Below, in pieces: positions 1,690 to 41,626 of a stretch of DNA of 42,694 nucleotides. The position numbers were made by a program, and so were the translations under genes. Within the stretch, counting starts at the first letter, position 1; each line of letters opens with the position of its first letter. The stretch comes from a virus. Taxonomy: Duplodnaviria; Heunggongvirae; Uroviricota; Caudoviricetes. The stretch lies in IMG/VR virus record IMGVR_UViG_2690316224_000012, positions 1 through 42,694 of that record, one strand, 5' to 3'. Below the pieces are notes generated by a model. It searched no databases. It was not told the origin of the DNA and saw only the letters and a program-made list of their open reading frames with translations.

Positions 1690-1704
1690 TGGTGTCCCCT
1701 GCAG
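1690..1704. repeat. attL core (direct repeat of argW 3' end), TGGTGTCCCCTGCAG
   Basis: Exact 15-bp copy of the tRNA 3' terminus at 41612..41626; flanking sequence diverges immediately. Confidence 0.7.
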
Positions 1705-1777
1705 ACATCTACTTGACGAGGCAGGGGATTGATTGGAATGGTGTTTTTTAGATATGAGAAATATTTTACCCGCTATT

Positions 1778-1978
1778 TTACCCATTGGCGCGGCTTAAGA
1801 GCTTATTTTTGAATTCACAATGGTCACGATATAACCATCTTGCTCGCCCGTGGATAACTTTGGCTTTAGGCAGGTCCCCGGACTTAATCCGGTCATAGAT
1901 GAAGGTTTTACCGAAGCCAGTATCGGCCATGATGAATTTCAAATCAACCAGTGAATCAGGCTGTAGTTCGTGTTGCAT
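1778..1978 (-). CDS. torI: Excisionase / recombination directionality factor, TorI (AlpA-family) -like
   Basis: 66-aa ORF at the prophage end opposite the IntS-like integrase; size, position and recalled KplE1 synteny match TorI. Two ATTTTACCC repeats overlap its 3' end. Confidence 0.7.
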   Translation of the reverse strand: MQHELQPDSLVDLKFIMADTGFGKTFIYDRIKSGDLPKAKVIHGRARWLYRDHCEFKNKLLSRANG

Positions 1979-2023
1979 GAGTGCTATCTCCGAATAGGGA
2001 ATCGAACCTGCAAATCAGGCAAT

Positions 2024-2044
2024 AAAAAAACCGCATTGATGCGG
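2024..2044 (-). terminator. Putative intrinsic terminator (minus strand) between early-left genes and torI
   Basis: Hairpin CCGCA-TTGA-TGCGG (2031..2044) preceded on the plus strand by A7, giving a U-run on the minus-strand transcript. Confidence 0.45.
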
Positions 2045-2103
2045 CAATGGCAGGTCTGGATATCTTGAGAAATGAACAGGCCTCATCGAGTGTGAGGCTG
2101 TGG

Positions 2104-2448
2104 TTAGTCCTTGCGTAACTCGCTAATTCTTCTGTAAGTCTCTGGTGCTTTGTTTCCGTGTATCTTCATTTCAGACTTCAACAGAGCAACGAGGGAATCC
2201 CATTCGTTGAGGATGCCTTTGAATGCCGGAACGCGCTTTGCAACCTTGTCGAATGAATCTCTGATTTCTGGGATCTGCTCAACAAGTGCAACGCATCGTC
2301 GGAAATCGGCTGCGTCATGTGGAGCGCCGAAGTGATGACCATAGATATTCTTTTTCAGTCCACATGCGATTGAGGCAAGAGTTGCGCTACTGATGCCGAC
2401 ATCGCCAGTCGATTGCCATTTCAAAACCTTCATAGCCAAATCTGACAT
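2104..2448 (-). CDS. Hypothetical early-left protein (114 aa)
   Basis: Track ORF 2104..2475; start moved to the internal ATG at 2448 (MSDLAMKV...), which has a GGAGA Shine-Dalgarno 6 nt upstream. Confidence 0.55.
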   Translation of the reverse strand: MSDLAMKVLKWQSTGDVGISSATLASIACGLKKNIYGHHFGAPHDAADFRRCVALVEQIPEIRDSFDKVAKRVPAFKGILNEWDSLVALLKSEMKIHGNKAPETYRRISELRKD

Positions 2449-2460
2449 TTCTTGTCTCCA

Positions 2461-2483
2461 ATAAAAAACCGCCATCAGGCGGC
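2461..2483 (-). terminator. Putative attenuator/terminator hairpin between two small genes
   Basis: Minus-sense GCCGCC-TGAT-GGCGGT followed by TTTTTTATT; the upstream gene's stop codon lies in the loop. Confidence 0.35.
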
Positions 2484-2642
2484 TTGGTGTTCTTTCAGTT
2501 CTTCAATTCGAATATTGGTTACGTCTGCATGTGCTATCTGCGCCCATATCATCCAGTGGTTATAGCAGTCGTTGATGTCCTCTGCTTCGATAACCCTGTC
2601 GAATGGCTCTCCATTCCATTCACCTGTGACTCGGAAGTGCAT
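2475..2642 (-). CDS. Hypothetical small protein (55 aa)
   Basis: Below the track threshold; ATG at 2642 with GGAGA 6 nt upstream; translates MHFRVTGEWNGEPFDRVIEAEDINDCYNHWMIWAQIAHADVTNIRIEELKEHQAA; stop overlaps the downstream track start (TGATG). Confidence 0.4.
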   Translation of the reverse strand: MHFRVTGEWNGEPFDRVIEAEDINDCYNHWMIWAQIAHADVTNIRIEELKEHQAA

Positions 2643-2800
2643 TTATCATCTCCATAAAACAAAACCCGCCGTAGCGAGTTCAGATAAAAGAAATCCCCGC
2701 GAGTGCGAGGATTGTTATTGTCTTTTCTTCGTGCATTTGTCGCACTTTCGGCACCATCCAGATAGGCACATCCGTCCGCAATTAACACATATAGGCCACA

Positions 2801-3082
2801 TCATTTTTCCTCTTTTGGTTTATGAATCTGAATGGTCATGCCGCTTTGAGTGGTGACTACAATGACAGAACCAGGCTGAAGACTGTTAAGATTGAATGCT
2901 TCGTAAAACGAATCCAAGGCCAGCGTTTTTTTATTCTTTCGGTTCCACCAACGCCATCCCTTGCTACAGGCTACACTGACAATCCACTGCCCACTCCTGT
3001 AAGCCATATAAAACCAGATGAGCAAAACCTGAAGGAATGCTATCCAGTCAATAATCGTATATTTCGCGAAGGAGTCCATCAC
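2801..3082 (-). CDS. Hypothetical protein (93 aa, hydrophobic N-terminal half)
   Basis: ORF whose start overlaps the upstream gene's stop by 4 bp; same orientation as the early-left operon. Confidence 0.5.
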   Translation of the reverse strand: MMDSFAKYTIIDWIAFLQVLLIWFYMAYRSGQWIVSVACSKGWRWWNRKNKKTLALDSFYEAFNLNSLQPGSVIVVTTQSGMTIQIHKPKEEK

Positions 3083-4263
3083 TTCACCTCCTGCTGCGGT
3101 GCTGCTGGCATTTCACGCCAGTGCGTAACTGAGTGCGGATCCGGATATTCAGTGCCATCATCCCAGCGATTGCCATTCCACATTGCAGACCACATCTCAC
3201 CGTCTTCATACATGACCATTACCGGAATTAACTTATCCGGCATTCGCTCACTACAGCTTATCCAACCATCCGGAGTTACCGGAGTTGGTCCATCGAATTC
3301 GGGCATGTCAGGACCTTTTCTGATAGCTTTAGCCAGCTCCAGCGGGTCATCGTAAAGCCAGTCGCCAGTTTGTGGGTGATTTGCTTCTGCAAGCTGCGCA
3401 GCCCATTCAAGACCATCTTTTTGACCTTGGAGATAATCAAGCGGCAACTCTTCATGATTACTTGCAGGTTCGGCACTATGAAGCATGGCAGCGTGGCAGG
3501 CATCCTCAACGTTCTTCACTGCATCTGCGCAGTAGTTATAGCGATTGCATTCCACTAACTTCTGCTTGAGATTTTCAATTGCTTGCGCGACATCAGCCTG
3601 TATTGGCGGAACGGCTGTTTGCTCTCGAACGTCATTAGGCGCTATAGGTTCTGCTGCCAACTGACTGGCATATTTGTTAATGGTAACGATAAGCTCTTGC
3701 TCAGCCTCATCCAGACAATCACCGATACCTCGCCTGTCACCGTCAAAATCATCGAAATCGGCACGAATCTTGGCAACCTTCAGGATTGCGGACAACACTT
3801 CACTAGGAATTACCGGATAGTTGGTTGACGTTTCCGCGATTTCCCGAAAATTATTGGTTGACGAATTCTTATTTTCCCGAAAGTTTCCGGACTGAAGCAT
3901 GGCGGCGCGGCAGGCGTTCCAGCCTCTCACCTCTGCAATAGCGGCAACAGCATCAACCGCGTACATGCTAAGAGGATTAGGCATTGGTTTTTCTTCCGGT
4001 ACTACTGGAACGGGGGGAGCGGCGTAGACCTCAATAATTCCATTATCAATAGGCCATTCTCCATCCTTGAGGTAGTCACTTGTGCCGTCAACTTGCTGTT
4101 CTGCAATGTGGAATGCACCTATTGGTTTTGCTTCCAGCGATGCCAGAGCAATCCGTGCCAGTTCTTCCGCTTCTTCTGCTGGCAGTACAACGTTGCTACC
4201 CGGTCCGTATGTTTCGCGCCACTGCTTGATTGTCAGCAGTCGCTCTTTGGTTATAGTGGTCAT
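3079..4263 (-). CDS. Phage protein with C-terminal DUF551-like domain
   Basis: 394-aa ORF; Trp-rich C-terminal segment (MWSAMWNGNRWDDG...HWREMP) resembles the DUF551 domain common in enterobacterial prophage early regions. Confidence 0.65.
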   Translation of the reverse strand: MTTITKERLLTIKQWRETYGPGSNVVLPAEEAEELARIALASLEAKPIGAFHIAEQQVDGTSDYLKDGEWPIDNGIIEVYAAPPVPVVPEEKPMPNPLSMYAVDAVAAIAEVRGWNACRAAMLQSGNFRENKNSSTNNFREIAETSTNYPVIPSEVLSAILKVAKIRADFDDFDGDRRGIGDCLDEAEQELIVTINKYASQLAAEPIAPNDVREQTAVPPIQADVAQAIENLKQKLVECNRYNYCADAVKNVEDACHAAMLHSAEPASNHEELPLDYLQGQKDGLEWAAQLAEANHPQTGDWLYDDPLELAKAIRKGPDMPEFDGPTPVTPDGWISCSERMPDKLIPVMVMYEDGEMWSAMWNGNRWDDGTEYPDPHSVTHWREMPAAPQQEVK

Positions 4264-4273
4264 TTGTTATGCC

Positions 4274-4471
4274 TCAATACACGAAATCTGTTTTAAATTC
4301 ATGGTTACATTCTGGACAGCATGTTTCGTAACCTTTTATTTCTTCACATGCCTGTTTAGCTCCAGAAAACTCCCAGAAATCTGGATCACAAAGCAGATCG
4401 AAATTGTGACCACATTTGGGACATTCGGTATCAAGTGACAGACTCCAGTAGGCAGTGATGTTTTTATCCAT
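4274..4471 (-). CDS. Small zinc-ribbon-like protein (CxxC...CxxC)
   Basis: Track ORF begins with TTG at 4504; internal ATG at 4471 has AAGGAG upstream and abuts the upstream stop; two CPxC pairs. Confidence 0.5.
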   Translation of the reverse strand: MDKNITAYWSLSLDTECPKCGHNFDLLCDPDFWEFSGAKQACEEIKGYETCCPECNHEFKTDFVY

Positions 4472-4472
4472 A

Positions 4473-5024
4473 TCACTCTCCTTTGATGCGAATGCCTGTT
4501 GCAATGCTGTTTATGATGCTGTCAGTGCATGGGGTAGAAAGCTGGGCATCTCCAGCAATTTTCATGACCTCAACATCTGCATATCGAATACCGAGGTGTA
4601 TCAGACCGGCTATGCCTGACTTAAGCCGAGCATTTTCCATAAATAGAACTTTTGCCCGCTGTTTTTCTGCTTCAAGCTCAACGCGCAGCTTCCCAACCGT
4701 AAGCGCAATTTCCTCGTTCTCCTGGTCGCGGCGTTTGATGTATTGCTGGTTTCTTTCCCGTTCATCCAGTAATGCCAGCACGGTAGCTGGATTGGCTGCG
4801 GAGATGAATTCAGCATTGGCCTGCTGTTCCATTTGGAAATCTTCATCGAAACCGCTTTCAGGATGCGCTCCTTCAATTCTGCAAATGGGAAGATATCCAA
4901 CAACTTCACGATGAATTAGCGCATCACCAGCATCAAATCTCTCCTCTCCATATTCGAGCGACCACACACCACACGTTGCTTTCTCTGCCTTTTCACGCAG
5001 TGCCTGATAGTCAATCTCGCTCAC
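4473..5024 (-). CDS. Ead/Ea22-like family protein
   Basis: N-terminus [17 protein letters not shown] and coiled-coil centre typical of Ea22-like proteins of lambdoid early-left regions. Confidence 0.65.
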   Translation of the reverse strand: MSEIDYQALREKAEKATCGVWSLEYGEERFDAGDALIHREVVGYLPICRIEGAHPESGFDEDFQMEQQANAEFISAANPATVLALLDERERNQQYIKRRDQENEEIALTVGKLRVELEAEKQRAKVLFMENARLKSGIAGLIHLGIRYADVEVMKIAGDAQLSTPCTDSIINSIATGIRIKGE

Positions 5025-5482
5025 TGGCTGCCTCCTTTACGAAGCTGTTCAGCAATACTTACGCATATCTCTGCGCCTCTAATCAGCCCCGGAACGTTCT
5101 TGTTTGGCCCAACTTCACCATCAACAAAATCAATCATCGCGTTACGAGCCATATCCACGCCCTGCGCCCGCACTTCAGCCAGGAAGGCGTCGGTGGCTGG
5201 GGTTCCCTCTACCACTAACCCTACTGGAGCTAGATATTCTTTCATCCCCGCATTCTCCACAGCCAGCGCCGCGCACTTGTCCTCAAGGTTATCAATCGTG
5301 ATTCCAGCAGAACGACACTCCCGCAACGCAGTTTCCAGTTTTGATTCAAGTTCACCGAACTTACGGACAAGATATTCAGCGTTTGTTTCGTTAACCTTTA
5401 AATCTCGTGGGATGCATTTACCTTTCAGAAAACCATCCATCTCAATTAGTGACATTTGTTTCATTTCTTCCCACTCCGCCAC
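5021..5482 (-). CDS. Hypothetical early-left protein (153 aa)
   Basis: ORF translationally coupled (4-bp overlap) to the downstream Ea22-like gene. Confidence 0.55.
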
Positions 5483-5621
5483 ATTGCATTCAGATATTTG
5501 TTTTGATTCACTGATGGAAAAGAATTTCTCTTAAGCAATTCCTCTCTCGATGGCATTGGCTTTACGCGTTGGCGAATAATCATTTCTGCCGGAAGAATGC
5601 CGAGATTGTATGCAAGTCCTC

Positions 5622-5903
5622 TCATGATTTACTCTCCACGAACTGGTCAATAGCCATGCTAAGTGATACACCTAAAGTCTCGATATGCTGCTGAATATCC
5701 TGTAGCGTCTGCGCCTGAGATAACAGGATTTCACGGTTGCATAACTCTTTGACCAGATGCTCAAACTTGCTGTAATAACCGATACGGCTTAGTGTTTCTT
5801 TCCCTGCATTCTCGCCTTCTTTGATAATTCCTCTTTCACTAAGAATCAGGTCGTGTTTTGTTCCGGTAATAACGTATTTTCCGAGGTCGATGTTTAGCTT
5901 CAT
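5622..5903 (-). CDS. Hypothetical protein (93 aa)
   Basis: ORF in the minus-strand early operon; no recognisable motif. Confidence 0.5.
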
Positions 5904-5919
5904 TGTTAATTATTCCATG

Positions 5920-6234
5920 TTAATTTATTCGTATACCTGCTCTTTCTTCATCGAGTTTTTTTAGCTTGTATCGCATAGCTCTTACTGAATAAATTGAGCG
6001 GCAGGTTGCAATTGCTATTTCTTCTGCGGAGAACTTACCGAAAAGTGATACTTCGGCTCTTGTCCAGCGTCTTCCACGAAGTCGGCTAACAATGTCAGCG
6101 CCAATCCTTGTTGCTTTCGCCATTACTGCTTTTTCAGTCCTTTCCAGTTTTTCAGCGATAACTTCAACTGGCATTGTCGCCGCTACTTCGCGCAAGAAAT
6201 CGACTTCCCATTTCTCCCATGGAGTCTTTTTCAT
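5920..6234 (-). CDS. Hypothetical protein with internal two-fold repeat (104 aa)
   Basis: Two similar ~35-aa segments (WEKWEVDFLREVA... and WTRAEVSLFGKFS...); possible DNA-binding repeats. Confidence 0.5.
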   Translation of the reverse strand: MKKTPWEKWEVDFLREVAATMPVEVIAEKLERTEKAVMAKATRIGADIVSRLRGRRWTRAEVSLFGKFSAEEIAIATCRSIYSVRAMRYKLKKLDEERAGIRIN

Positions 6235-6245
6235 AGGCGATACCG

Positions 6246-6734
6246 TTATTTGATAAGAAGTGAAGGTTTCCCAACCTTGAGTTGAGCGCCGGGGATATTT
6301 ATTCCTGCTTTTAGTTGGTGCTTGATTGCCAACTTGTCGGCTTTAATTGTCGTTTCAAACTCAACGTATTCAGGAGGAAGGGCGCTTGAGTCGATGATTT
6401 CTACAGTTTCTGACGGTTTGCGGATTGTTACCTGGTGAATACCTGCTCGAATATTTTTCTTGCCAACCATTTCAAGCGATGACGCTATATATGATTTGAT
6501 GCTGTCAATCTTATTTTGAATTACTGCGGCTCGCTCATTCAGTGACTTTGCCTCTTCCTTGAGGCGTTCAGCATAACCAGATTCATTTTTAATGACGGAA
6601 AGAAGTTGCTCTATTTTATCGGTAAATTCTCCTTCCATGCCTTCTATTGTGTCAGCAATCATCTCTGGTTCTAAATCTGAATCCATCAATTTTGCGTATT
6701 CATTGGCTATTTCATACAGTTTGCTCACTGGCAA
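6246..6734 (-). CDS. Gp157 / Mu Gam-like protein (putative host-nuclease inhibitor)
   Basis: 162 aa with coiled-coil N-terminus and beta-rich C-terminus, immediately downstream of RecT; family assignment from memory. Confidence 0.5.
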   Translation of the reverse strand: MPVSKLYEIANEYAKLMDSDLEPEMIADTIEGMEGEFTDKIEQLLSVIKNESGYAERLKEEAKSLNERAAVIQNKIDSIKSYIASSLEMVGKKNIRAGIHQVTIRKPSETVEIIDSSALPPEYVEFETTIKADKLAIKHQLKAGINIPGAQLKVGKPSLLIK

Positions 6735-7623
6735 CCTCCAGTTTCGCTTTGCATTCTATGTAAATGGCTTGTACGTTCTGCTGCAATTTCATTCCAGATG
6801 TCAGGCGATATGCTTCTGCAAAATATCGCTTCAAATCATCCATGTTTTCTGCCTGAGCCATTTCATCACAAAGAAGTTGTGCTTTATCCATTATTTCCTG
6901 CTGGCGTTTCCGTTCATCTTCGCGGATATCTTCCTCTGATTTGTGCGGCATAACTGGTTCAGTCCACACACCTTCTTCTTCGTTTAGTACGTGAATAGCA
7001 CTATCAAGACGTGATGCCTTAGGCCAATACTTGCTTGCACGCTTTACGACCGTCTTTCGCGCCATCTCATTCCAGTGATTTACCCATGGTCCTTTATCGC
7101 TGAATGCTGCCTTGCTTGTTTTCCTTACAGCCTCAATTTCAGCCAGACTCATCTCTTCCGTTAGATAATCACCTGCTGGCGTCTTAACTGTGCAGTAAAC
7201 GCCAACGATATCACCACGATCACCGAAGGCGTTGTATTTATGGGTTGGTGCTTTATCAAGCCCGTTTGACTCATAGGTATCGTTAGCATGAACAAGTTTT
7301 GCCTGACCCCATGAGATAACACCAGACTCCATTGCAATATGGAGCAATCCCATATAACTGATATCAAGGCACACCATGCCGTCGCGCGGAACCAGATAAG
7401 CCAGTTTGCTTGCAGGGTTTAAGGTGATGCCGATCGCCGCAACGTTGATGATAGCGTTCTGTGCGCTGGTTGGATTTGCCAGTGCCGTTTTAGCCAGGTA
7501 ATCATTTTTCTGGAAATACTGAATTGCAAACTGGCTTTCCTTAGCCCATGTCACCGTCTGTTCAGTCAATGCTCCGCAGAATAACTGCTCTTGCTGTTTA
7601 ACGAATTCAACGATATTGCTCAT
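6712..7623 (-). CDS. recT: RecT-family single-strand annealing recombinase
   Basis: Segment GPWVNHWNEMARKTVVKRASKYWP matches the conserved RecT motif (Rac RecT GPWVTHWEEMAKKTAIRRLFKYLP). Confidence 0.85.
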   Translation of the reverse strand: MSNIVEFVKQQEQLFCGALTEQTVTWAKESQFAIQYFQKNDYLAKTALANPTSAQNAIINVAAIGITLNPASKLAYLVPRDGMVCLDISYMGLLHIAMESGVISWGQAKLVHANDTYESNGLDKAPTHKYNAFGDRGDIVGVYCTVKTPAGDYLTEEMSLAEIEAVRKTSKAAFSDKGPWVNHWNEMARKTVVKRASKYWPKASRLDSAIHVLNEEEGVWTEPVMPHKSEEDIREDERKRQQEIMDKAQLLCDEMAQAENMDDLKRYFAEAYRLTSGMKLQQNVQAIYIECKAKLEVASEQTV

Positions 7624-7931
7624 GCTGCTTCTCCAAAAATGTGTCTGCGTTTGAATATTGCGAAGGCATATTCAGCCTTAACTCTTTCGGTTATTGCATC
7701 CCAGAACCATTCAGCGGCTTTTTCCTGATAGTTACAGTCATCATCTTCCAGCCAGTCGATAGCGTCCTTAGTGTGTTCATCTGGTTTATATGAGCGAAGC
7801 ATTTCGCTTATTGGGTCGCAACGTTTGCAGAGGCGATCAACTTCACTGTTGATTCGTTCGTAATCTTCATCAGTAAAACTTGCGATTATTTGCGATATTT
7901 CACGCTTATCATTCAGAGTCAGAATCATCAT
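7620..7931 (-). CDS. Hypothetical protein (103 aa)
   Basis: ORF with GGAGA SD upstream; its stop overlaps the recT start. Confidence 0.5.
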   Translation of the reverse strand: MMILTLNDKREISQIIASFTDEDYERINSEVDRLCKRCDPISEMLRSYKPDEHTKDAIDWLEDDDCNYQEKAAEWFWDAITERVKAEYAFAIFKRRHIFGEAA

Positions 7932-8012
7932 CTTTCTCCTGTTCTTTGTGCTGATTGAGCATTTTGTTCATCTGACGAATGAATTCTTCGTCTGACCATG
8001 TATCCGCAATGC

Positions 8013-8177
8013 TCATTGCTTAACGACCTTAATCAGTTGAGTTACCTCAATGATGTCCTCGCATAAATCCGAGTACTGAAATGGGCCGCAGTTGTGAGAG
8101 TTAGTGCGTCTGGCGAAAGCCATTCTTCTAAGCTCTTTCAGGGCTTCTTCCAGTTCCTCGTAAGTTGGTTTTTTCAT
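8013..8177 (-). CDS. Hypothetical small protein (54 aa)
   Basis: Sub-threshold ORF MKKPTYEELEEALKELRRMAFARRTNSHNCGPFQYSDLCEDIIEVTQLIKVVKQ; its ATG overlaps the stop of the cIII-like gene (ATGA). Confidence 0.35.
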   Translation of the reverse strand: MKKPTYEELEEALKELRRMAFARRTNSHNCGPFQYSDLCEDIIEVTQLIKVVKQ

Positions 8178-8344
8178 GGCTGTACCTTTTGATTCAGAAA
8201 CTCAACAAGACGGTCCAGCAAGCTCTTAACGCGAGGTTGTTTAAAGTCTGCTCCGGTTAAAATATTTTTTCGTGAATGCTGCACCGATAAAATTGGGTTG
8301 AAAGGGCGAACCGATGCCGCCCCTGCAATAGCGAACTGTTGCAT
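8174..8344 (-). CDS. CIII-like protein (putative FtsH inhibitor)
   Basis: Only the last 56 codons of the track ORF look coding: ATG at 8344 with AAGGAG 6 nt upstream; MQQFAIAG... resembles lambda CIII MQYAIAG...; correct map position. Confidence 0.5.
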   Translation of the reverse strand: MQQFAIAGAASVRPFNPILSVQHSRKNILTGADFKQPRVKSLLDRLVEFLNQKVQP

Positions 8345-8529
8345 AGGATGCTCCTTCTGTTTGATTGCATAACGAAAACGCCTCGAGTGAAGCGTTATTG
8401 GTATGCATATAAAAAGGCCCTCACACTGGAGGGCAAAGAAGATTTCCAATAATCAGAACAAGTCGGCTCCTGTTTAGTTACGAGCGACATTGCTCCGTGT
8501 ATTCACTCGTTGGAATGAATACACAGTGC

Positions 8530-10008: not shown

Positions 10009-10281
10009 TTACCTCGCCGTCAATTGTTTTGATTTCCGGTAGCCTGCCGCGTAAACGGCTACGTTTGGCAGGCAAATACTTCCACTGCATTCATCTGCCT
10101 TCTTGCAGCGAAGGCTTCCGAGTGAAGCTGCTTTGTCTGCTCTGACGCAACCAGAGAGCTTTAGCGCAATTTTTCGCGCCAGTCGCTGCTCTTGCATTGC
10201 CTGTTCACGTTGAGCCTGTCTGCGTGCTCTGCGGCGATTTCTGGCGTTATCGTCAGCCAGATATGTAATGACTACTGTCAT
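10009..10281 (-). CDS. N-like transcription antitermination protein (P22 gp24-like)
   Basis: Arg-rich N-terminal motif (NARNRRRARRQAQRE); C-terminus VAVYAAGYRKSKQLTAR resembles P22 gp24; first gene after pL/nutL; GGAGGT SD. Confidence 0.65.
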   Translation of the reverse strand: MTVVITYLADDNARNRRRARRQAQREQAMQEQRLARKIALKLSGCVRADKAASLGSLRCKKADECSGSICLPNVAVYAAGYRKSKQLTAR

Positions 10282-10899: not shown

Positions 10900-11289
10900 T
10901 TAGTCAGCGAAGGTTAAGACGAGAATTACCTTAATGATGTCTGCTACAACAGACACGGCCATAGATAAACCAAAGACGATCCAAGCCATAGAGATGTCTT
11001 CACTACCATCGTATAGAGTTCCGTAATCACTGGTGTAAGGCGTAAATGTCGCGCCTTGATACAACAAGTATAAGCTTGATCCATAGAGGATAAATGCAGA
11101 TATCCCTTGTATTGCTATGATCACTAGAATCATGAAACGAGCTGATCTATGCGCCCAAGCCTGGCTTATTTTTTCTGATAGAGATTTCGCAATAAAAGCA
11201 TGCGCTAAGCCGTAAATTGTCGAGATTGCCAACATCCCAAAAAAGCTTGCTATAGCGGTTCCAACCATAATCGCCCCTTGCGTGATCAA
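10900..11289 (-). CDS. Small integral membrane protein in the lysogenic (cI) operon, rexAB-position
   Basis: 129 aa, about three predicted TM segments; start overlaps the cI stop by 4 bp, so it is co-transcribed with the repressor; lies between cI and OL exactly where lambda carries rexA/rexB. Confidence 0.6.
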   Translation of the reverse strand: MITQGAIMVGTAIASFFGMLAISTIYGLAHAFIAKSLSEKISQAWAHRSARFMILVIIAIQGISAFILYGSSLYLLYQGATFTPYTSDYGTLYDGSEDISMAWIVFGLSMAVSVVADIIKVILVLTFAD

Positions 11290-12079: not shown

Positions 12080-12108
12080 TTGTTCATGGTTAATAACGGA
12101 GAGTGCAT

Positions 12109-12303
12109 ATGATTCGAATGACACTTGCCGATTACGCCAAAATCCATGGACAGGCTAAAGCAGCCAGTGACTTTGGTGTAATCCAGTGCGCTATCAGCAA
12201 GGCCATTCTGGCAGGTCGTAACATTATGGTTACGGTAAAGCCTGATGGCAGTGTGATTGGAGAGGAAGTTCGTCCTTTCCCAAGCAACAAGAAAAACAAA
12301 TAG
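12109..12303 (+). CDS. cro: Cro repressor
   Basis: Track ORF begins with GTG at 12103; ATG at 12109 has GGAGAG SD; protein resembles lambda Cro (...[19 protein letters not shown] vs ...DGSVYAEEVKPFPSNKK). Confidence 0.85.
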
Positions 12304-24834: not shown

Positions 24835-24835
24835 T

Positions 24836-28018: not shown

Positions 28019-28036
28019 CCTATCGGAGCATTAAGC

Positions 28037-29290: not shown

Positions 29291-29296
29291 TTTTGG

Positions 29297-29320
29297 TGGG
29301 GCTTCGGCCCCATTTTTATT
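29297..29320 (+). terminator. Intrinsic terminator after the coat gene
   Basis: GGGGC-TTCG-GCCCC hairpin followed by TTTTTATT. Confidence 0.7.
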
Positions 29321-29331
29321 GGGAGAAGACA

Positions 29332-29962: not shown

Positions 29963-29971
29963 GGTGAATAA

Positions 29972-32238: not shown

Positions 32239-32693
32239 TGATTCAGTTCAAACCAACGCGAAACATCGACCTGATAGAAGCCGTGGGAAATCACCCCGAC
32301 ATTATCGCCGGGAGCAACAACGGTGATGGATACGACTACAAGCCTGAATGCCGTTACTTCGAGGTGAACGTGCACGGGCAGTTCGGCGGCATTGTTTACT
32401 ATCAGGAGATTCAGCCTTTGACCTTTGATTGCCACGCCATGTACCTGCCAGAGGTTCGTGGATTCAGCAAGGAAATCGGGCTGGCGTTCTGGCGATACAT
32501 TCTGACTAACACCACCGTTCAGTGCGTCACATCGTTCGCTGCGCGCAAATTCCGCCACGGTCAGATGTACTGCGCAATGATTGGCCTTAAGCGTGTAGGA
32601 ACCATCAAGAAATACTTCAAAGGCGTGGATGACGTGACGTTTTACAGCGCAACACGCGAAGAACTAATCGACTTCCTGAATCACGGGAGATAG
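32235..32693 (+). CDS. P22 gp14-like head/ejection accessory protein
   Basis: 152 aa, assigned by position between the needle and ejection-protein genes. Confidence 0.55.
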
Positions 32694-32695
32694 CC

Positions 32696-33388
32696 ATGTT
32701 ATATGCATTTAAGCTGGGCAGAAAACTGCGCGGCGAGGAACCTTGGTGCCCTGAAAAAGGCGGGAAAGGTGGCTCCGATAAAAGCGCAAAGTATGCAGCA
32801 GAAGCTCAGAAGTATGCCGCAGACCTGCAAAATCAGCAGTTCAACACCATCATGAACAACCTGAAGCTGTTTACTCCTCTGGCTGATAAGTATGTCGGCA
32901 GCCTCGAGAACTTATCGTCTCTGGAAGGGCAAGGTCAGGCACTTAACCAGTATTACAACTCTCAGCAGTACAAAGATCTTGCTGGTCAGGCTCGCTATCA
33001 GAGTCTGGCGGCAGCGGAAGCAACAGGTGGATTGGGTTCCACTGCAACCGGTAATCAGTTAGCAACAATCGCACCAACGCTTGGTCAGCAATGGCTATCT
33101 GGTCAGATGAACAACTACCAGAATCTGGCAAATATTGGTCTTGGCGCACTGCAAGGTCAGGCAAACGCCGGGCAGACATATGCCAACAACATGAGTCAGA
33201 TTTCGCAGCAAAGTGCGGCTCTTGCAGCGGCAAATGCCAACAGACCATCAGCAATGCAATCTGCTATTGGCGGAGGTGCGTCTGGTGCTATTGCTGGGGC
33301 TGGACTTGCGAAATTAATTGGTTCATCAACTCCGTGGGGTGCTGGTATCGGTGCTGGTATCGGTCTGCTTGATTCACTGCTTTATTAA
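32696..33388 (+). CDS. Ejection (internal virion) protein, P22 gp7-like
   Basis: 230 aa (P22 gp7 about 229 aa), Gln/Ala-rich with Gly-rich hydrophobic C-terminus. Confidence 0.65.
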   Translation: MLYAFKLGRKLRGEEPWCPEKGGKGGSDKSAKYAAEAQKYAADLQNQQFNTIMNNLKLFTPLADKYVGSLENLSSLEGQGQALNQYYNSQQYKDLAGQARYQSLAAAEATGGLGSTATGNQLATIAPTLGQQWLSGQMNNYQNLANIGLGALQGQANAGQTYANNMSQISQQSAALAAANANRPSAMQSAIGGGASGAIAGAGLAKLIGSSTPWGAGIGAGIGLLDSLLY

Positions 33389-33398
33389 GGGGTAATCA

Positions 33399-34814
33399 AT
33401 GGCTACGTGGCAACAGGGTATTAATTCTGGTGGTTTTCTGGCTGGCATCGGTACGCAAAATGAGAATGCGCCAAAGGCAAGCGACATTAACGCAACGCTT
33501 GGTCTGATCCGCGAAAACAATGAACTGGCTCGCTCAGGTGCAAATAACGTTGGTCTGACCGCGTTACGTGGTCTGGCTGGAGTTGCTGATATTTACAATC
33601 AGGAACAGCAACAGAAAGCGATTAGTGCGTTCAATAAGGTTCACGCTGATGCATGGGCTTCTGGTGATCCATCGGGACTATTTAAGTTTGCCAAGGAAAA
33701 TCCAGCGTTTGTTGCGCAGGCACAACAGGCGTTTTCCGGTCTTAATGAGCAGCAACGCAACGATATGGGCGATTTAGCCATGAGGGCTAACGTCGCTCTT
33801 TCTCAGGGACCGGAAGCCTACAGTAAATTCATTACTGACAACAAGGACAGGTTAAATCGCGTTGGTGCTAATGCTGACTGGATGATTCAGACAGGTATCC
33901 AGAATCCAGAGCAGCTATCACACATGCTGACTACTATGTCTCTCGGTGCTCTTGGACCAGAAAAGGCGTTTGCTGTTCAGGATAAGATGGCTGGTCGTGA
34001 AATTGACCGAGGCAGGCTGGCAGAGACAATCCGCAGCAATCAGGCTGGCGAGGCACTTCAGGCGAGAGGGCAAAACCTTTCCTATCAGTCAGCAATGACT
34101 GGGCACAATATCGCAGCACAACGCTTGGCTCTGGATCAGCAAGAGTTCGGGTTTAAGATGCAGCAAGCGCAGGAAAAGGCTCAGCAGTTGATTAGCGAAG
34201 CACCTAAGCTGTCAGTAAATATGGAAAAAGGCATCGAGACGGCTGTAAACAATGCCACAGCATCATCAAACTCAGCCAATTCCATGAGTGCGCTTGCTCA
34301 ACAGTTCAGAGCAGAAAAACCAACGACAGGTTTGTTCGGTAACGCACAGAACATGTTCGCAAAACTTACCGGAAGCGATACGACATTGCGTGATTTGCGC
34401 ATTCGCCAAAATGCCCTTGTTAACAGTCAGGTTCTTAAATTCCTACCTCCCGGCCCAGCAACGGATAAAGACGTTGAGATCGTTCGGCAGGGTGCGCCAA
34501 CTGACATGGATAACCCTGAGACGGTCGCAAGATGGCTTGATGCAATGGCAAACCTTGAGCGACGAAACGCGCAGTTTAATGAGTTTAAAGCTGAGTGGAT
34601 GAGCGCGAATGGCAATCCTGGACAATCGCGTAATGGCGGTCAGATATTGGGGTTGGATGTTAAAAAAGGTGAATCATTGGGGAGTGCCGTTAAGCGGTAT
34701 ATGTCATTGAATACTGACGCAGCGCCAGCACAAGATTCGACACCTTCAGGAGAACCACGGAATCAGGTTGGATCATATACCTCAAAATCAGGCATTCAAT
34801 TTACGGTGGAATGA
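33399..34814 (+). CDS. Ejection protein, P22 gp20-like
   Basis: 471 aa, matching P22 gp20 length and position. Confidence 0.65.
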
Positions 34815-36652
34815 TGAAAGTAACTGCAAACGGTAAGACATTTATCTTTCCTGATGGTACGAGCACCGAAGATATTGGCATCGCCATTGATGAGTATTTT
34901 GCTGGTCAGGCTGTTCAGCAACAAACAGTTAATCAGGCCAATAATGCACCAACACGGGAAGAACCATCATTGATGCAACAAGCTGGCGATTGGCTCACTG
35001 GTGGTCAAAGTGCAGGGCAAATTGCAGAACAGGCTGGTCGTGGTCTGGTAAACATACCATTTGACGTATTGCAGGGTGGCGCAAGTCTGATTAATGCAAT
35101 CAGTCAGGGGATTGGTGGGCCAAAAGTTTTGGATGATGTTTATCGTCCAGTAGACAAACCGACAGACCCATACGCACAAGCCGGTGAAACAATTGGTGGG
35201 TATTTAGTTCCAGGAGTTGGAACGGCAGGAAGCATGGCTATTGGATCGCTGGCAGAGGCCGCAAATCAGAAAGGCGATTTCGCACAAAATGCAGCTAAAA
35301 ATGCCGGAGTTAACCTTGCCGCTCAGGGTGTTCTTTCCGCAGCAGCAAAGGGAATAGGGCGTGGAATAACGGCTATAAAAGGTGATATTGCGCCAGAAGT
35401 GGCGAAGAAAATTGCCACATCAGAATCGATGGGCGTGACACCAATGACATCTGATGTTATCCCGCCGAAAAATGCTTTCACTCGCGGCCTTACTCAGGAT
35501 GCCGAGGGGGCTTTGCTCGGGACGGGCTCAAAGCGAGCAGAGCAATATGCAACGCGGAGTAAGCTGGTAAGCAATTATTTTGACCGTTTTGGTGAGTACA
35601 ACCCTGATGATGTGGTGAAATCTCTGACCACCACGTTAAGGGGGCGGAAGGATGCCGCTGGCGCTGTTATCAATGACGTCACCAATAAAATGGGTAATGC
35701 CGCAGTTGATACCACAAATACCATGAATGCTCTGAATACAGCGATCGCAAGACAGGAACGGCTTGGGACGTCTGCCAATCAAAGCCTGCTTACATCCTTG
35801 CGTAACCTACGTGAAGAATTAGCAAACCCTGCAACTGATTTGGATGTTACGTTTGATCTCTTGCGTCAGCACAGAACAGCATTTAGATCTAATGTTCAGG
35901 GAGATGCTATGGTCTTCCCCAACCAGGCAAAAGCAGCTACCAATATGGTAGAGAATGCAATGTCAAAAGACCTTCGTAACGCAGTTGCTAAAAACCTCGG
36001 TGCATCAGACGCAGCAAAATACCTTAAAGCAAATTCCGATTATGCAAACGTTTATAATAAGGTGCTTAATAAAAACATTGCCAACAAGCTCAACAAGGCA
36101 AGCAGTGAAGCCAGTCCTGAACTTATAAATACCGTTGTATTAAGCAGAAAACCATCTGACGTGAAACGAATCTGGAGCGCACTGGATGATAAGGGGAAAG
36201 ATGCTATGCGTGCAGCTTACGTCAGCAAAATAGCGGAAAAGGCCGGGGACTCTCCAGCCAAGTTCATCACTGAAGTTAATAAGCTGAAATCTCAGTCAGG
36301 CGGTGAAATTTACAACACTATTTTTTCTGGAAAGCACATGAAAGAGCTTGATGCTCTTCATGAAGTTCTACAGCAAACAGCAAGGTCAGACACCGCAAAT
36401 GTAGTAACTCAGACGGGGCAATCGCAAGCCAACAGGATAAGGACGATTGGCGCAACTGCGACCCTTGGCGTATCAATGGGGCTTGAGGCTGGTTTTGGTG
36501 CAATGATGCGCTTGTATGAGTCCAAAGCAGCAAGGAATATGCTTCTTCGTTTGGCAAACACCAAAGCAGGAACACCAGCCTATGAAAGAGCGATAAATAA
36601 CGCTGCGAATGCCATCAGACCGCTGTTTGCTACTGAGGCAACACAGCAGTAA
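34811..36652 (+). CDS. Ejection protein, P22 gp16-like
   Basis: 613 aa (P22 gp16 about 609 aa), last of the three ejection genes. Confidence 0.65.
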
Positions 36653-36676: not shown

Positions 36677-37066
36677 CTAACATTTTCTTTTTACTTTTCC
36701 AACAAAAGCTTTGGTTGAATCCATATTTCCATAACCGGAAATGGTTTTTGACATTAAAACTGTTCCAGTAGGATGTATTACCCATGAGTCGATAACGCGT
36801 TGAGTTTCGCCATTCGCGCCGATTCCTATGATGGAGTTTTTAGACAATGCTTTGTAAGCCATGCCGCCCGCATCTGTCCCAGAATATGTGATGCTGGCAT
36901 CTTCACCGTTTGTCTTAATGATGAATGTTCCACTAAAACCATCTTCTTCCGGATGGAAATTATTTCGTTCTGAATAGCTTATTCCGCGCATATCTCCAAC
37001 GACCCAGCACTCTGCTGTAGCCCCAAAAGATATGAATAAGAACATAGCAGTAAGAAATTGCTTCAC
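36677..37066 (-). CDS. Secreted protein with signal peptide (moron)
   Basis: GTG start with AAGGAGG SD; N-terminal signal peptide (MKQFLTAMFLFISFGATA|E); convergent with the flanking structural genes. Confidence 0.6.
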   Translation of the reverse strand: MKQFLTAMFLFISFGATAECWVVGDMRGISYSERNNFHPEEDGFSGTFIIKTNGEDASITYSGTDAGGMAYKALSKNSIIGIGANGETQRVIDSWVIHPTGTVLMSKTISGYGNMDSTKAFVGKVKRKC

Positions 37067-37184
37067 GCCAACCTCCTTAGTTTTGAGCAGGATACCATGA
37101 AAAAAGTAAACATCTTTTGCCTACTTCACATTTGAATGGTTTGTCATTAGGATGTTTCCGGTTTTTTCAAATATGGAAATTGAT

Positions 37185-37604
37185 ATGAAGAGGATTATCG
37201 GCGTTGTTGCTGGCGCTATATTGTTATCTGGGTGCGCAACTATTGTTGGTGACGAAACACAGCTCGTGCAAGTGAACAGCAATCCTTCCGGTGCGAGCTT
37301 TAAAGTAAAAGACGAATCAGGCGTGATTGTTGCGCAAGGCAAGACCCCGCAAGGAGTAACTCTTGCCAAGTCAGATGGTAGTTATTTTGGCAAAAAGAGC
37401 TACCAGATCACTATGGAAAAGGATGGGTACGAACCAGTTACCCTGCCAATCAAAGCCAATGCTAATGGTTGGTATATTGGTGGAAACCTTGTGTTTGGTG
37501 GGTTAATTGGTTGGCTTGCTGTAGATCCTTTTAATGGTGGGATGTATACCTTGAAGCCAAAAGAGGCAAACGCATCTCTTATACCATCAACAAAGCAAGA
37601 CTAA
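37185..37604 (+). CDS. Lipoprotein (moron)
   Basis: Signal peptide with lipobox AILLSGC; mature part has PEGA-like beta-rich sequence and a Gly-rich hydrophobic C-terminal segment. Confidence 0.6.
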   Translation: MKRIIGVVAGAILLSGCATIVGDETQLVQVNSNPSGASFKVKDESGVIVAQGKTPQGVTLAKSDGSYFGKKSYQITMEKDGYEPVTLPIKANANGWYIGGNLVFGGLIGWLAVDPFNGGMYTLKPKEANASLIPSTKQD

Positions 37605-37782: not shown

Positions 37783-37846
37783 AAAAAGCGAACAAATACT
37801 CACCGTAGCCATGCTGCGGCGATTCCTTGTATCTGGAGCAAATTAA

Positions 37847-40084
37847 ATGACAGACATTACAGCCAATGTGATCGTATCGATGCCTTCGCAACTCTTCACT
37901 ATGGCTCGTTCTTTTAAAGCCGTAGCCAATGGCAAAATTTATATCGGTAAAATTGACACTGACCCGGTAAATACTGAAAACCAGATTCAGGTTTATGTAG
38001 AGAACGAAGATGGTTCTCACGTTCCTGTTTCGCAACCAATCATCATTAACGCTGCTGGATATCCGGTATATAACGGACAGATTGCCAAATTCGTAACCGT
38101 GCAAGGCCATTCTATGGCTGTTTATGATGCGTATGGTGCGCAGCAGTTCTATTTTTCGAATGTGCTGAAGTATGACCCTGACCAACTCAGGCAAGATCTT
38201 GCATCTCAAGGAGGTGTTAATCTGGTAAACGGAGCTATCTCACAGGAAGATCTTGTTTTGCAGTCGATCACAAAAATTCCAAGTTATGATAATTCTAACG
38301 TAGTCCAGGCGTGGCGCGATAGTGTTGCGACCTACGGGTATGTTTACTTCTCTAATCATTCAAAAAATCAGATGGTGTACACCGTACCGTCTACAGCTGC
38401 TAACGCTTCTTTCCTTGCGAACAGTAAAGTAATCATTGATAAAAATGTCACCCTGAGATTCGACAGTGATCTGTACTCACTGTTTAAATCGTTGCAGTAC
38501 GAGGGGGAGGGTACGTTTGAATTTACGCACCTGAACTTTAAAGCAACCGGTGGAGAAGTGGATTATCTGGCTAAGCAGGCCATCCTCAACCGAAACCCTA
38601 TTCGCATGAAGCGAGTGGAATGGTCAGATTGTAAAGTTTATTCCATAAATGGTGACACGTTCTTCTATGAAGGTGAAGTCACCATATCCTCAGATAGCGC
38701 AGCTATCTTCCCCTTAACTACTGACCGTACAACAGGCCTGTTCGCACCAATAGATATTGGAGAGCATATTTCTGCACATATTCGTATGGAGTCTCAGGCC
38801 GCCTCAGAAGTTGGGATTGTTCTGCGATGCTCTGGTGGTTGGATGATGTTCTATGGGGCACCAGGTGCTACACAGTGGTCTTATAGACAGAAACCAATTG
38901 GTGGTCCAGTAGCAGAAGGAACTCCATTCCCGCTGCCAGGAGGTTTACTGTCGTACGCCCCGGGCAAAGCAACCGTTGGCGTATCACTGCAAGGTAAAAA
39001 CTGGGCGCAGATAACGATGAATGGCGTTGGGATACGTTTGCCCTTTGATACTGCTGATGTAGGGGATGTATACGAAGTTGGGTTTGTTGCACTGACCACG
39101 GCATCTGGAGGTTCTGCGCGTGTAACTGGATTATGCAGCTACACCTCTGATAATGGCGTGCACGGTAAGCCTCCACTTAATATCCTTATCCACGGTGATA
39201 GTACAGCTGAGGATTTCATTTCCGCGTTCAGCTCGTACATTCCGCAATTAATGGATGGAGCGAACGGCCACCGTTCATATAGCATTGTAAACAAGGCGGT
39301 TGCCGGACAGACAATGAGGCAACAGTTAGATCTCCTGAAGGCTCAGGGGCCGGGTGATGCTTACATCGTTATTATGGTTGCCGGAACTAACGAAGGGCAG
39401 GCAAACCAAAACGGCGATTATATGGCGTCATTGATAGATGAGTTTGTCTTATATTGCAATGGCCTTGGTCGTATCCCTGTTTGGGTTGAGCCGTGGATGT
39501 GGTATAGCCAGTCATTTATTGGAGGGGCTGGCCAGCCATCTTCTAACTACGACGGTGTCGCAGAGTTGCGAGAAGCTGGTAAACGCCAGATGATGAAATA
39601 TGGCAATAACGTCATTTGTGTAACAACAACTCACCAGCTCCCGGCCCCATATCCAGAGTATTTCAACACGCAATACGACCCACTTCTGCGTGATGACATT
39701 CACCAAAGCCAGTTAGGGTATCGTCTGTATGCGGAAATTATCTGCTCTGCCATTATCGACTGGTGGTCGCGTGTTGATTACACGCCAAGAGCAGCTGTTC
39801 AATGGTGGGCTGGAACAAACGTAACAGTACAGGCACCGTCAAGTTTAACTGCCAATTCAATTAATATTGAACTGGCAGCCACTTCATTTGCGAATGGCAA
39901 TACTGTTCTAACGCTTCCGAGGTGGTGCAGACCAAAAGTAACCAAAAATGTCCCTGTACCGTTCACTGCTGATGGCGTTTCATTTGGCATGGCAATGGCC
40001 ACCATTAATGCTTCAACAGGACAAATATCGATTGAAGGGTCCACCACTACATCTCCAACGTTCTACATAGATGCGACATGGTAG
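37847..40084 (+). CDS. Tailspike: P22-type head-binding N-terminal domain fused to a receptor domain with SGNH-hydrolase (esterase) motifs
   Basis: N-terminus [11 protein letters not shown]...[12 protein letters not shown]...DTDPVN...VTVQGHSMA matches P22 gp9 residues 1-110; C-terminal part has GDS ([14 protein letters not shown]), GxNE (VAGTNEG) and DxxH ([11 protein letters not shown]) blocks. Confidence 0.8.
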
Positions 40085-40085
40085 T

Positions 40086-40113
40086 AAAAACATGGAGGCA
40101 ATACGCCTCCATG
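40086..40113 (-). terminator. Hairpin terminator between convergent tailspike and integrase genes
   Basis: CATGGAGGC-AATAC-GCCTCCATG perfect 9-bp stem; T5 follows on the minus-strand transcript. Confidence 0.5.
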
Positions 40114-40292
40114 CTAATAACTCAAATGCTCTTAAAATACTCTTAAGGAGATGATCAGCGCTTTTATTAACATCAACCATCTATGTGCGTTATAGGTTAA
40201 TTATCTCCATGTGATGGCAGACAAAACTGAGACACACAAAGCTTTGCACTGGATTGCAAGGCTTTGTGCTCTTAGATAGTAGTTAAGGTGGA

Positions 40293-41450
40293 TCACTCCA
40301 CCTTCCCATCAAGCCATTCCGCCCACCACTGCATCATTTCTCTGCGCTTATCTAGATACTGAGCATGGTTGTAAATCCCGCGCACAGATCCGCCGTTGGC
40401 ATGTGCAAGTTGCACTTCAATAGCGTCAGCAGGCCATTCGTGCTCGTTCATAATCGTGCTGAATTCATGCCTGAATCCGTGACCGCTTTCCAGACCCTCA
40501 TAGCCGATTTGTTTAATCACAAGTAGCACCGCGTTCTCGCAGATTGGCTTCTTCTTATCGTTGCGTCCGGCAAAAACAAACTCTGATACTGGTTTGGTGA
40601 TTGAGCTTAGCGTAGTGAGAAGTTCAACCACCTGGTCTGACATAGGAACCACATGAATTTTGCGTCCCTTCATCACACTGGCGTCGATAGTGATAATCCT
40701 GTTTTCAAAATCGACGTTCTTCCATTGCATGGAACGAAGCTCTTTCGTTCTTAGGGCTGTGTAGCGTAAAACTTTGGTCGCAATGAGCGATACGATGCTT
40801 CCTGAAAATGTTGCCAGTGCTTTGTTGAATGCCGGGATCTGGTCTGCAGGAAGAAACGGGAAGTTCTTCTTGCGGTATCCTTTCATGGCGTCTGCAAGGT
40901 CAGGTGCCGGGTTATATTTAGCCCTACCAGTGACAATAGCGTAACGGAAAACCTCGCCGCATCTTCTGCGTGCTTTGTTGGCTCGCTCCATTGCGCCGCG
41001 ATCTTCAAATCTGCGGATTACTTCCAGCAGTTGCATCGGCTCAATATCCTGAATTTCAAGGCCGCCGATGATAGGTAAAATGTCGTCATCAAACATTTTT
41101 GCAAGTTCAGTTGCATAGCCTACTGACCAGACTTGCTTCTTGTGCTCGTACCATTCCTTGTAAATCGCACTAAAGGAATTGTTGTTAGACGAAGCCTTTT
41201 TCGCTTTTACCGGATCGATGCCAACCGAGATGTCTTTCCTCGCAGTCCATGCTTTATCCCTTGCCTCCTGCAAAGTCATTAGCGGATATTTTCCTACGGT
41301 CAGGATTTTCTCCTTACCGTCAATCTTGTAGCGAAGCTGCCATACCTTTTTCCCTGACACAGGGACATAAAGGTACAGGCCATTACCATCGAGTAGGCGG
41401 TATGGTTTTTCTTTCGGCTTTGCTGCTTCAATCTGCTTAACGGTGAGCAT
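40293..41450 (-). CDS. intS: Tyrosine integrase, IntS (KplE1/CPS-53) type
   Basis: Track ORF begins with GTG at 41486; ATG at 41450 gives 385 aa starting MLTVKQIEAAKPKEKPYRL..., as recalled for E. coli IntS; adjacent to argW. Confidence 0.85.
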   Translation of the reverse strand: MLTVKQIEAAKPKEKPYRLLDGNGLYLYVPVSGKKVWQLRYKIDGKEKILTVGKYPLMTLQEARDKAWTARKDISVGIDPVKAKKASSNNNSFSAIYKEWYEHKKQVWSVGYATELAKMFDDDILPIIGGLEIQDIEPMQLLEVIRRFEDRGAMERANKARRRCGEVFRYAIVTGRAKYNPAPDLADAMKGYRKKNFPFLPADQIPAFNKALATFSGSIVSLIATKVLRYTALRTKELRSMQWKNVDFENRIITIDASVMKGRKIHVVPMSDQVVELLTTLSSITKPVSEFVFAGRNDKKKPICENAVLLVIKQIGYEGLESGHGFRHEFSTIMNEHEWPADAIEVQLAHANGGSVRGIYNHAQYLDKRREMMQWWAEWLDGKVE

Positions 41451-41611
41451 GGGTAAAAATCCGGTGGGTAAAATTATTTTATCCACTTTTTACCCGTCAT
41501 GGAGTGCGGCTGTCAACGATCTGACGCGAACCATTACGAACTGTGAATCTACGGAAGGCTTGATATTCAGGGGATTTTGCGGACTGGTACGGATGGGAGC
41601 GAACTGATAAA

Positions 41612-41626
41612 TGGTGTCCCCTGCAG
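41612..41626. repeat. attR core (argW 3' end), TGGTGTCCCCTGCAG
   Basis: Identical 15-mer to 1690..1704. Confidence 0.7.

Follow-up and report, generated by a model that had tools for sequence, protein, structure and literature searches.

What occupies the argW gene in this DNA: a whole phage that could still leave the chromosome, or a remnant that has kept little more than its recombination genes? We analyzed the 42,694-nucleotide stretch that makes up IMG/VR virus record IMGVR_UViG_2690316224_000012 (Caudoviricetes), referred to as the window. An earlier note, made from the sequence alone, had described positions 1690-41626 as an intact and probably inducible P22/Sf6-like prophage at argW with an IntS/TorI recombination module. 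We conclude that the element is very probably a complete P22-like (Lederbergvirus-type) prophage that uses this module and is probably excisable; that induction would yield infectious particles is likely, with somewhat less confidence. The boundaries, the gene content, and the identity to characterized parts are read directly from the sequence, from which we infer that the element may be called intact and inducible.

Integration at argW and the IntS/TorI module

The element is an insertion of 39,922 bp (positions 1690-41626), flanked by two exact copies of TGGTGTCCCCTGCAG. The features at its two ends are as follows.

1690-1704: attL core, equivalent to K-12 pawZ; the final 15 nt of argW in a displaced copy (exact repeat D7)
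1705-1777, minus: phage att arm adjoining torI; near-identical to the K-12 and HK620 arms
1778-1978, minus: torI, recombination directionality factor (RDF, excisionase), 66 amino acids (aa); 66 of 66 residues identical to K-12 TorI
1998-2013, minus: second copy of 16 bp from the argW T-arm, reading TTGCAGGTTCGATTCC in the sense of the tRNA (exact repeat D11, partner at 41626-41641)
2030-2045, minus: terminator-like hairpin and subsequent T-run, at the border of the conserved recombination module on the upstream side of torI
40293-41450, minus: intS-type tyrosine integrase, 385 aa (translation, domains, about 99% identity to K-12 IntS)
41451-41611, minus: phage att arm between int and the core; four mismatches to K-12, three to HK620
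41612-41626: attR core, identical with the argW 3' end (exact repeat, tRNA prediction, and empty-site test)
41612-41686, minus: argW, tRNA-Arg(CCT) (ARAGORN and Rfam)

Identity between the two TGGTGTCCCCTGCAG copies ends at 15 bp (repeat search, family D7), because the 16th base of the K-12 core, a T, is G at attL here. About 0.85 exact 15-bp repeat pairs are expected by chance in 42.7 kb, and several unrelated 15-17-mers were also found; a 15-bp exact repeat alone proves nothing, and its location is what counts. Prediction of tRNA-Arg(CCT) at 41612-41686 makes the right copy the 3' end of argW, and argW stays intact through the core that the phage supplies. An empty site was assembled in silico by joining 1190-1704 to 41627-42130, and the resulting 1019 bp were searched in complete E. 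coli genomes. Many of these contain the construct as a single uninterrupted 100% match, annotated as cscB-type transporter, tRNA-Arg, and yfdC, and at least 80% of its length is covered in 1412 complete genomes. This fixes the insertion at exactly 39,922 bp, with the 15-bp core as its limit, in agreement with the earlier proposal of a prophage at argW between exact 15-bp duplications of the tRNA 3' end.

The same 15-mer was found at the att sites of HK620, KplE1, Kapi1, 611R6, and phiv205-1. As in the module of the KplE1/HK620/Sf6 type, the core CTGCAGGGGACACCA lies at the argW 3' end and is duplicated at both prophage ends. KplE1 is bordered by a 16-nt core, CTGCAGGGGACACCAT (PMC2951348), and in Kapi1 the deletion of a 17-bp attB containing the 15-mer abolished integration at the argW site (PMC8787464). 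The flanks of the element in the window, cscB on the left (1-1248) and yfdC on the right (41762-42694, minus), are 99-100% identical to those in the record of prophage vB_EcoP-611R6.

The integrase and the excisionase lie at opposite ends of the prophage, as had been claimed. The integrase open reading frame (ORF; 40293-41486) opens at an upstream GTG, and the ATG equivalent to that of IntS is at 41450, which gives a protein of 385 aa beginning MLTVKQIEAAKP (the MLTVKQ start previously compared with K-12 IntS). Its domains are Arm-DNA-bind_3, Phage_int_M, and Phage_integrase, the composition of an IntS-type heterobivalent integrase. TorI is identical in all 66 residues also to HkaC of HK620 and to the Kapi1 excisionase, and it matched no Pfam family at E <= 0.001. 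Few mismatches separate both arms, including the GGGTAAAA(T/A)-type repeats on both sides and the intS-promoter stretch, from their counterparts in K-12 and HK620. The intS promoter and arm-type sites have been mapped in KplE1 in the counterpart of the 41451-41611 arm (PMC2951348), and promoter activity is predicted here from the identity of the arm. Two GGGTAAAAT-type repeats at the torI stop codon, within 1705-1777, are kept in TorI loci of other genera; we infer that they are putative IntS arm-type sites.

In the circular phage, the attP core would thus come to lie between the RDF gene and int. The gene order in the window gives this arrangement, and the deposited HK620 genome has the same order (int, attP core, torI); the Kapi1 paper likewise places attP between xis and int (PMC8787464). 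The KplE1 module has been called 'highly conserved' in CUS-3, HK620, and Sf6, and the transcription of int and of the RDF gene is uncoupled, since attP lies between them (PMC2951348, PMC3509656). The arrangement of int and xis around attP is thus already documented for KplE1, HK620, Sf6, CUS-3, and Kapi1, as the earlier note had supposed for the present element. From the identity to this experimentally studied module, TorI-dependent excision and IntS-dependent integration are predicted.

Gene content, completeness, and induction

Between its ends the element carries a full lambdoid/P22 gene set. Its late region comprises the following features.

20338-20493, plus: phage-borne tRNA-Asn(GTT) and tRNA-Thr(TGT), between Q and the holin gene (ARAGORN and Rfam)
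20736-22123, plus: lysis cassette with holin S, endolysin R, Rz, Rz1, and a 50-aa ORF; 97-100% identical to Kapi1, CUS-3, and HK620
21736-21942, plus: Rz1, embedded in Rz (lipobox MVAGC)
22675-29290, plus: packaging and head block, opening with an hkbM-like ORF (full-length matches)
22997-23422, plus: small terminase, 141 aa; 88% to HK620 and Kapi1
23419-24834, plus: large terminase; 100% to Kapi1
24836-27034, plus: portal; 99%
27125-28018, plus: scaffold; 99.7%
28037-29290, plus: coat; 98% to CUS-3
29293-36652, plus: head completion and ejection genes, comprising a 75-aa ORF, gp4, gp10, gp26, gp14, gp7, gp20 (471 aa), and gp16 (613 aa)
36677-37066, minus: gene of unknown function at the place of P22 immI, 129 aa; 97% to Emek orf129
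37152-37604, plus: gene of unknown function at the place of P22 immI, 150 aa; 97% to epsilon34 gp15
37847-40084, plus: tailspike, 745 aa (Pfam, N-terminal structures in PDB, AlphaFold2, Foldseek)

The virion genes 3-2-1-8-5-4-10-26-14-7-20-16-9 are all present, colinear, and full length, as in P22-like phages. Lysis and morphogenesis genes have the reference lengths seen in HK620, CUS-3, Kapi1, Emek, and N7, which upholds the view that both modules are complete. The designation 'P22/Sf6-like' holds in its first half and only loosely in its second: the head genes are of the CUS-3/Kapi1 type, not of the Sf6 type. Portal is 56% identical to that of HK620, and tblastn gave no match between the coat and the HK620 coat. 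The 282-aa gp26 tail needle carries a knob of the Sf6 type (Phage_tail_NK), and gp20 has an Inj_translocase domain.

Two places in this region had the appearance of damage. The first six reference phages matched gp20 and gp16 poorly, which raised the suspicion of truncation; this was rejected on full-length relatives: N7 covers the whole of gp20 at 98.7%, and Emek gp13 aligns with gp16 through the last residue. Gene decay in the ORF-poor interval 22124-22674 was likewise rejected, as this is a variable cargo slot with conserved flanks that is empty here. The slots between lysis and packaging genes (22124-22674) and between the hkbM-like ORF and the small terminase (22918-22996), which are empty or hold unique sequence in the element, contain different genes in HK620, Kapi1, CUS-3, and phiv205-1. 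The two genes at the immI place match PHROGs 2651 and 6823, and the epsilon34 gp15-like one gives a weak hint of a PEGA domain. The tRNA-Asn/tRNA-Thr pair is annotated in Kapi1 as well, and an Rfam scan of the whole window returned three tRNAs and nothing else.

The early region has the lambdoid set found in Lederbergvirus (N, cI, cro, cII, O, P, nin, and Q).

2104-8449, minus: early-left accessory and recombination genes (tblastn to HK620, Kapi1, and 611R6; Pfam; PHROGs)
3079-4263, minus: DUF551/Eaa protein, 394 aa
6712-7623, minus: RecT
about 8013-8449, minus: kil/cIII region
10009-10281, minus: N antiterminator, 90 aa; 97% identical to HK620 N
11286-12002, minus: cI repressor of the HK620 immunity type, 238 aa; 99.6% identical to HK620 cI
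12103-12303, plus: cro; 98-99% identical to HK620
12412-12690, plus: cII; 98-99% identical to HK620
12873-13763, plus: replication initiator O; 99% over the full length to O of HK75, IME10, Huey, and HK629
13247-13353: origin iterons inside O, ATTGTCCAACGGTTGTCCA repeats (repeat family D1)
13738-15189, plus: P, DnaB-like replicative helicase; 99% identical to HK620 P over 483 aa
15265-19761, plus: nin region (homology, Pfam, PHROGs)
16912-17466, plus: Dam-family N6-adenine DNA methyltransferase (Pfam PF05869, E = 2e-64)
19758-20246, plus: Q late antiterminator, 162 aa (Phage_antitermQ)

The early-left block also encodes Ead/Ea22-like, DUF2737, and Sipho_Gp157-like proteins, and hkaQ-like and hkaS-like genes lie in the early-left operon with N and cI. 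The nin region holds a pair of paralogous small ORFs, NinB, the Dam-type methyltransferase, NinE/X/F, Roi, an HkbD-like protein, RusA, and NinH. The Dam-type enzyme had no counterpart in the first six reference phages, and the exact translation of its ORF is absent from the protein collection, possibly since the gene start is called elsewhere. The paralogous ORFs (15489-15752 and 16198-16539), about 720 bp apart, share near-identical stretches of 41-48 bp (repeats D2 and D3), and the second has no Pfam match. A frameshift in Q was suspected from the contrast between its high DNA identity to CUS-3 Q and a protein identity of 84%, with a product 10 aa shorter. This was ruled out: the alignment shows an in-frame mosaic C-terminal half, and the exact 162-aa protein is on record in a cluster of 527 members (of the 15 members listed, 13 have 162 aa and two carry the label partial). 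The exact N protein likewise falls in a cluster of 491 members, 13 of the 15 listed having 90 aa.

The whole is a mosaic. Among 50,697 phage records (searched by megablast with the element in two halves), the left half is best covered by 611R6, HK140, and HK620 (47-50% coverage, 97% identity) and the right half by phiv205-1, Kapi1, and CUS-3 (64-67% coverage, 94-96% identity); Sf6 covers 35-37% of the element at about 93-97% identity. The best coverage per half among 5,426 complete E. coli genomes is 71% and 83%. On these megablast coverage figures, the element would share its species with no listed phage. Its 39.9 kb fall within the range of the HK620, Kapi1, and CUS-3 records (38.3-40.2 kb), and a full lambdoid/P22 mosaic of about 40 kb, as opposed to the 10.2-kb K-12 remnant, is indeed what the window contains.

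One E. coli genome, GCA_977064935.1, agrees with the window at the left end, where it has cscB, torI, and the DUF551 protein of 394 aa, and joins these to a different block of recombination genes, with SSB and anti-RecBCD in place of RecT, which indicates ongoing mosaic exchange at the same site.

A prophage can look complete and nonetheless be cryptic, if point mutations, an incompatible mosaic, or silencing prevent infectious particles, and such an element could still excise, as KplE1 does. Several observations weigh in this direction and against a functional phage. The whole mosaic occurs in none of the phage records or complete E. coli genomes searched, and the exact combination is therefore without precedent for plaques; 611R6, the closest match of the left half, is an in-silico prophage from a genome survey and not an isolated virus. 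Compared with HK620 and Kapi1, both accessory slots lack cargo or differ in content. At 90% identity, the exact 394-aa DUF551 protein is the sole member of its cluster. Candidate mismatches within the mosaic are gp16 and gp20 with the other ejection proteins, gp16 being only 54-59% identical to its closest counterparts in phage records (relatives of the same length abound in prophages), and an HK620-type small terminase with a CUS-3-type head. KplE1 itself shows that a recombination module can outlive the rest of its phage, and the inducibility of the present element is a prediction. Against this, we detected no frameshift, truncation, or insertion sequence in any of the genes (missense and regulatory mutations being invisible to these methods). 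The pairing of an HK620-type small terminase with this type of large terminase recurs in Kapi1, which is an isolated phage. The essential proteins that were looked up, gp20, gp16, small terminase, N, and the needle among them, are on record as exact sequences in public collections, in clusters of 133-5311 members with complete members of matching length. We therefore regard a cryptic prophage as unlikely and retain the reading of a complete P22-like prophage.

A second alternative concerns the trigger: the prophage might be released by other signals or only spontaneously, and not by the SOS response, with TorI perhaps limited by upstream termination in a phage that lacks the Ant circuit. The immI region (ant/mnt/arc) is in fact absent from the element by homology comparison, the terminator-like hairpin lies directly upstream of torI, and KplE1 has been reported not to be SOS-inducible, for want of a repressor (PMC2951348). 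The element, by contrast, has full-length N and Q antiterminators and a repressor with HTH_3 and Peptidase_S24 domains. In this cI, QA^GSW (116-120; A117-G118), S155 of GDSM, and K198 of FKKL align with the cleavage site and the catalytic dyad of what we take to be the lambda cI sequence. These features bear out the description of cI as SOS-cleavable in type, and the repressor is predicted to be cleaved with activated RecA and to respond to SOS. Release independent of SOS thus appears quite improbable.

From these parts a life cycle can be proposed for the complete prophage. In the lysogen, the HK620-type cI would repress pL and pR, and intS would be expressed from a promoter of its own that overlaps the att arm. 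DNA damage would activate RecA, and cI would cleave itself at A117-G118. N would then carry transcription from pL past terminators to torI at the far left end, and TorI and IntS, with host factors, would recombine the two 15-bp cores into an excised circle with attP between torI and int. O and P would replicate this circle from the iterons inside O, and Q would turn on the late operon, from the two tRNAs and S/R/Rz/Rz1 to terminase, portal, scaffold, and CUS-3-type coat. Packaging would follow the headful mode, gp4, gp10, and gp26 would close the filled heads, and six tailspike trimers with a predicted SGNH carbohydrate esterase receptor module would attach. Each step, including packaging and the infectivity of the particles, is predicted from the homology of the parts.

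A tailspike with a predicted esterase module

The tailspike consists of a P22 head-binding domain, a beta-sandwich, an SGNH esterase domain (about residues 445-630), and a C-terminal beta domain. The head-binding domain (PF09008, residues 1-113, E = 6e-66) is that of P22-like phages, and the N-terminus matches the N-terminal domains of the Sf6 and P22 tailspikes in the PDB. Beyond this domain, identity to phage records does not exceed 29%. Several E. coli prophage clusters contain the receptor module at 94-99% identity, and in Enterobacter and other hosts it is joined to different N-terminal adaptors.

Eight residues (G450, D451, S452, G487, G513, N515, D616, and H619) are invariant in 32 homologues of 28-84% identity, and they correspond to SGNH blocks I (GDS, 450-452), II (G487), III (GxN, 513-515), and V (DxxH, 616-619). 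An AlphaFold2 model of the tailspike has a mean predicted local distance difference test score of 80.8, exceeding 90 over most of the esterase region, and an SGNH alpha/beta/alpha fold is predicted for the module. Foldseek matched two-domain carbohydrate esterases, among them 2waa (family CE2), 7toh, and 6hfz, as well as GDSL hydrolases with target TM-scores of 0.6-0.74. The receptor module is thus predicted to be an SGNH carbohydrate esterase and not a glycosidase, and it would deacylate a surface polysaccharide instead of cutting it.

Esterase tailspikes are known from the literature in other phage groups. G7C gp63.1, the esterases of Acinetobacter and Klebsiella phages, and the esterase domain of epsilon15 are, like the present protein, SGNH/GDSL receptor-binding proteins; here, by contrast, the esterase module is fused to a P22 head-binding domain. 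The top structural matches in Foldseek did not include G7C gp63.1.

The split argW motif and the relatives at argW

Upstream of torI lies a second piece of argW. The TTGCAGGTTCGATTCC copy of the T-arm segment precedes the torI ATG by 19 nt, and the acceptor piece, which is the att core, lies 73 bp downstream of the torI stop codon. The phage thus carries the last 30 nt of argW in tRNA order, interrupted by 293 bp that contain torI. We found the same split arrangement in HK620, KplE1, Kapi1, 611R6, and phiv205-1. In 24 TorI-relative loci from other genera, the motif is kept in about 11; its T-loop part, GGTTCGATT, is invariant in eight distinct upstream sequences whose flanks diverge, from Enterobacter, Citrobacter, Serratia, Pantoea, and Edwardsiella. 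One locus with a TorI of 85% identity lacks the motif, as do the more distant loci.

A functional element that controls RDF expression, instead of a decaying relic of a longer ancestral attP, is a tentative explanation that we consider less probable than the relic. In the transcript that reads through from pL, it might act by anti-Shine-Dalgarno pairing (UUCC:GGAG) or as a processing signal resembling a tRNA. The HK620 record annotates a putative cII-dependent integration promoter here, and the motif may alternatively be part of it. A structured RNA upstream of torI was unsupported: in the eight upstream regions, RNAalifold gave only a weak 4-bp UUCC:GGAG hairpin (-0.68 kcal/mol) with zero compensatory changes and no covariation. 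A text search of the literature for the 16-mer returned tRNA probe papers only, and a literature search on Rho-dependent control of torI returned nothing useful.

The CUS-3 record (CP000711.1) labels this inner 16-mer as the attL and attR core (1-16 and 40192-40207) and ends there; as deposited, it is therefore without torI and the 15-bp core. That the true core is this inner repeat, GGAATCGAACCTGCAA (1998-2013 and 41626-41641), an exact repeat directly adjoining the 15-mer within argW, so that the mobile unit would leave out torI and the 15-bp repeat, can practically be dismissed: the empty site seen in many genomes is what remains when the whole interval between the 15-bp copies, with torI, is removed, torI and the 15-mer are part of the HK620 and Kapi1 phage genomes as deposited, and both the published KplE1 core (PMC2951348) and the Kapi1 attB deletion (PMC8787464) point to the 15-mer.

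With the 15-bp core retained, the element can be set beside the known occupants of argW. KplE1 (CPS-53) of K-12 has the same site, the same att core, near-identical arms, and int and torI at opposite ends. It differs as a 10.2-kb remnant without repressor, replication, lysis, and virion genes, which carries yfdGHI O-antigen glucosylation genes that are absent here, and its left chromosomal neighbor is dsdC instead of cscB. HK620 shares the recombination module, the immunity region (cI, cro, cII, N, hkaQ, and hkaS), the P helicase, and the P22-like gene order; it differs in its Sf6/APSE-type head genes, the receptor domain of its tailspike, the N-terminus of O, and its recombination genes, and has an O-antigen polymerase-like gene adjoining int.

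CUS-3, Kapi1, and the prophage phiv205-1 likewise reside at argW, and their large terminase, portal, scaffold, coat, and gp4 are 95-100% identical to those of the element. Kapi1 additionally has the tRNA-Asn/tRNA-Thr pair, a knobbed tail needle, and RecT in common with the element. These three phages differ in a cI that is only 42% identical, in O and P, in the possession of ant/mnt/arc regions, and in their tailspikes, that of CUS-3 being an endosialidase; CUS-3 also carries neuO. Sf6, which has an oac O-acetyltransferase and an endorhamnosidase tailspike, shares the P22-like architecture and the type of needle knob and differs by IS911 and another head type. Its recombination module is the same according to the literature (PMC2951348, PMC3509656).

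P22-like phages at argW with IntS/TorI are thus already well known, and what is new here is the gene mosaic and the esterase-type tailspike. As a prophage, the element has little significance, being one more mosaic. The split tRNA shows that the GenBank record of CUS-3 was delimited by the inner repeat and hence omits torI. The tailspike contributes a receptor module without a close counterpart in the phage records searched, for which deacylation is predicted. As an exactly delimited and apparently complete prophage in a csc+ E. coli background, the element provides a natural full-phage setting for the KplE1 recombination module, together with a repressor of the SOS-responsive type, which K-12 lacks.

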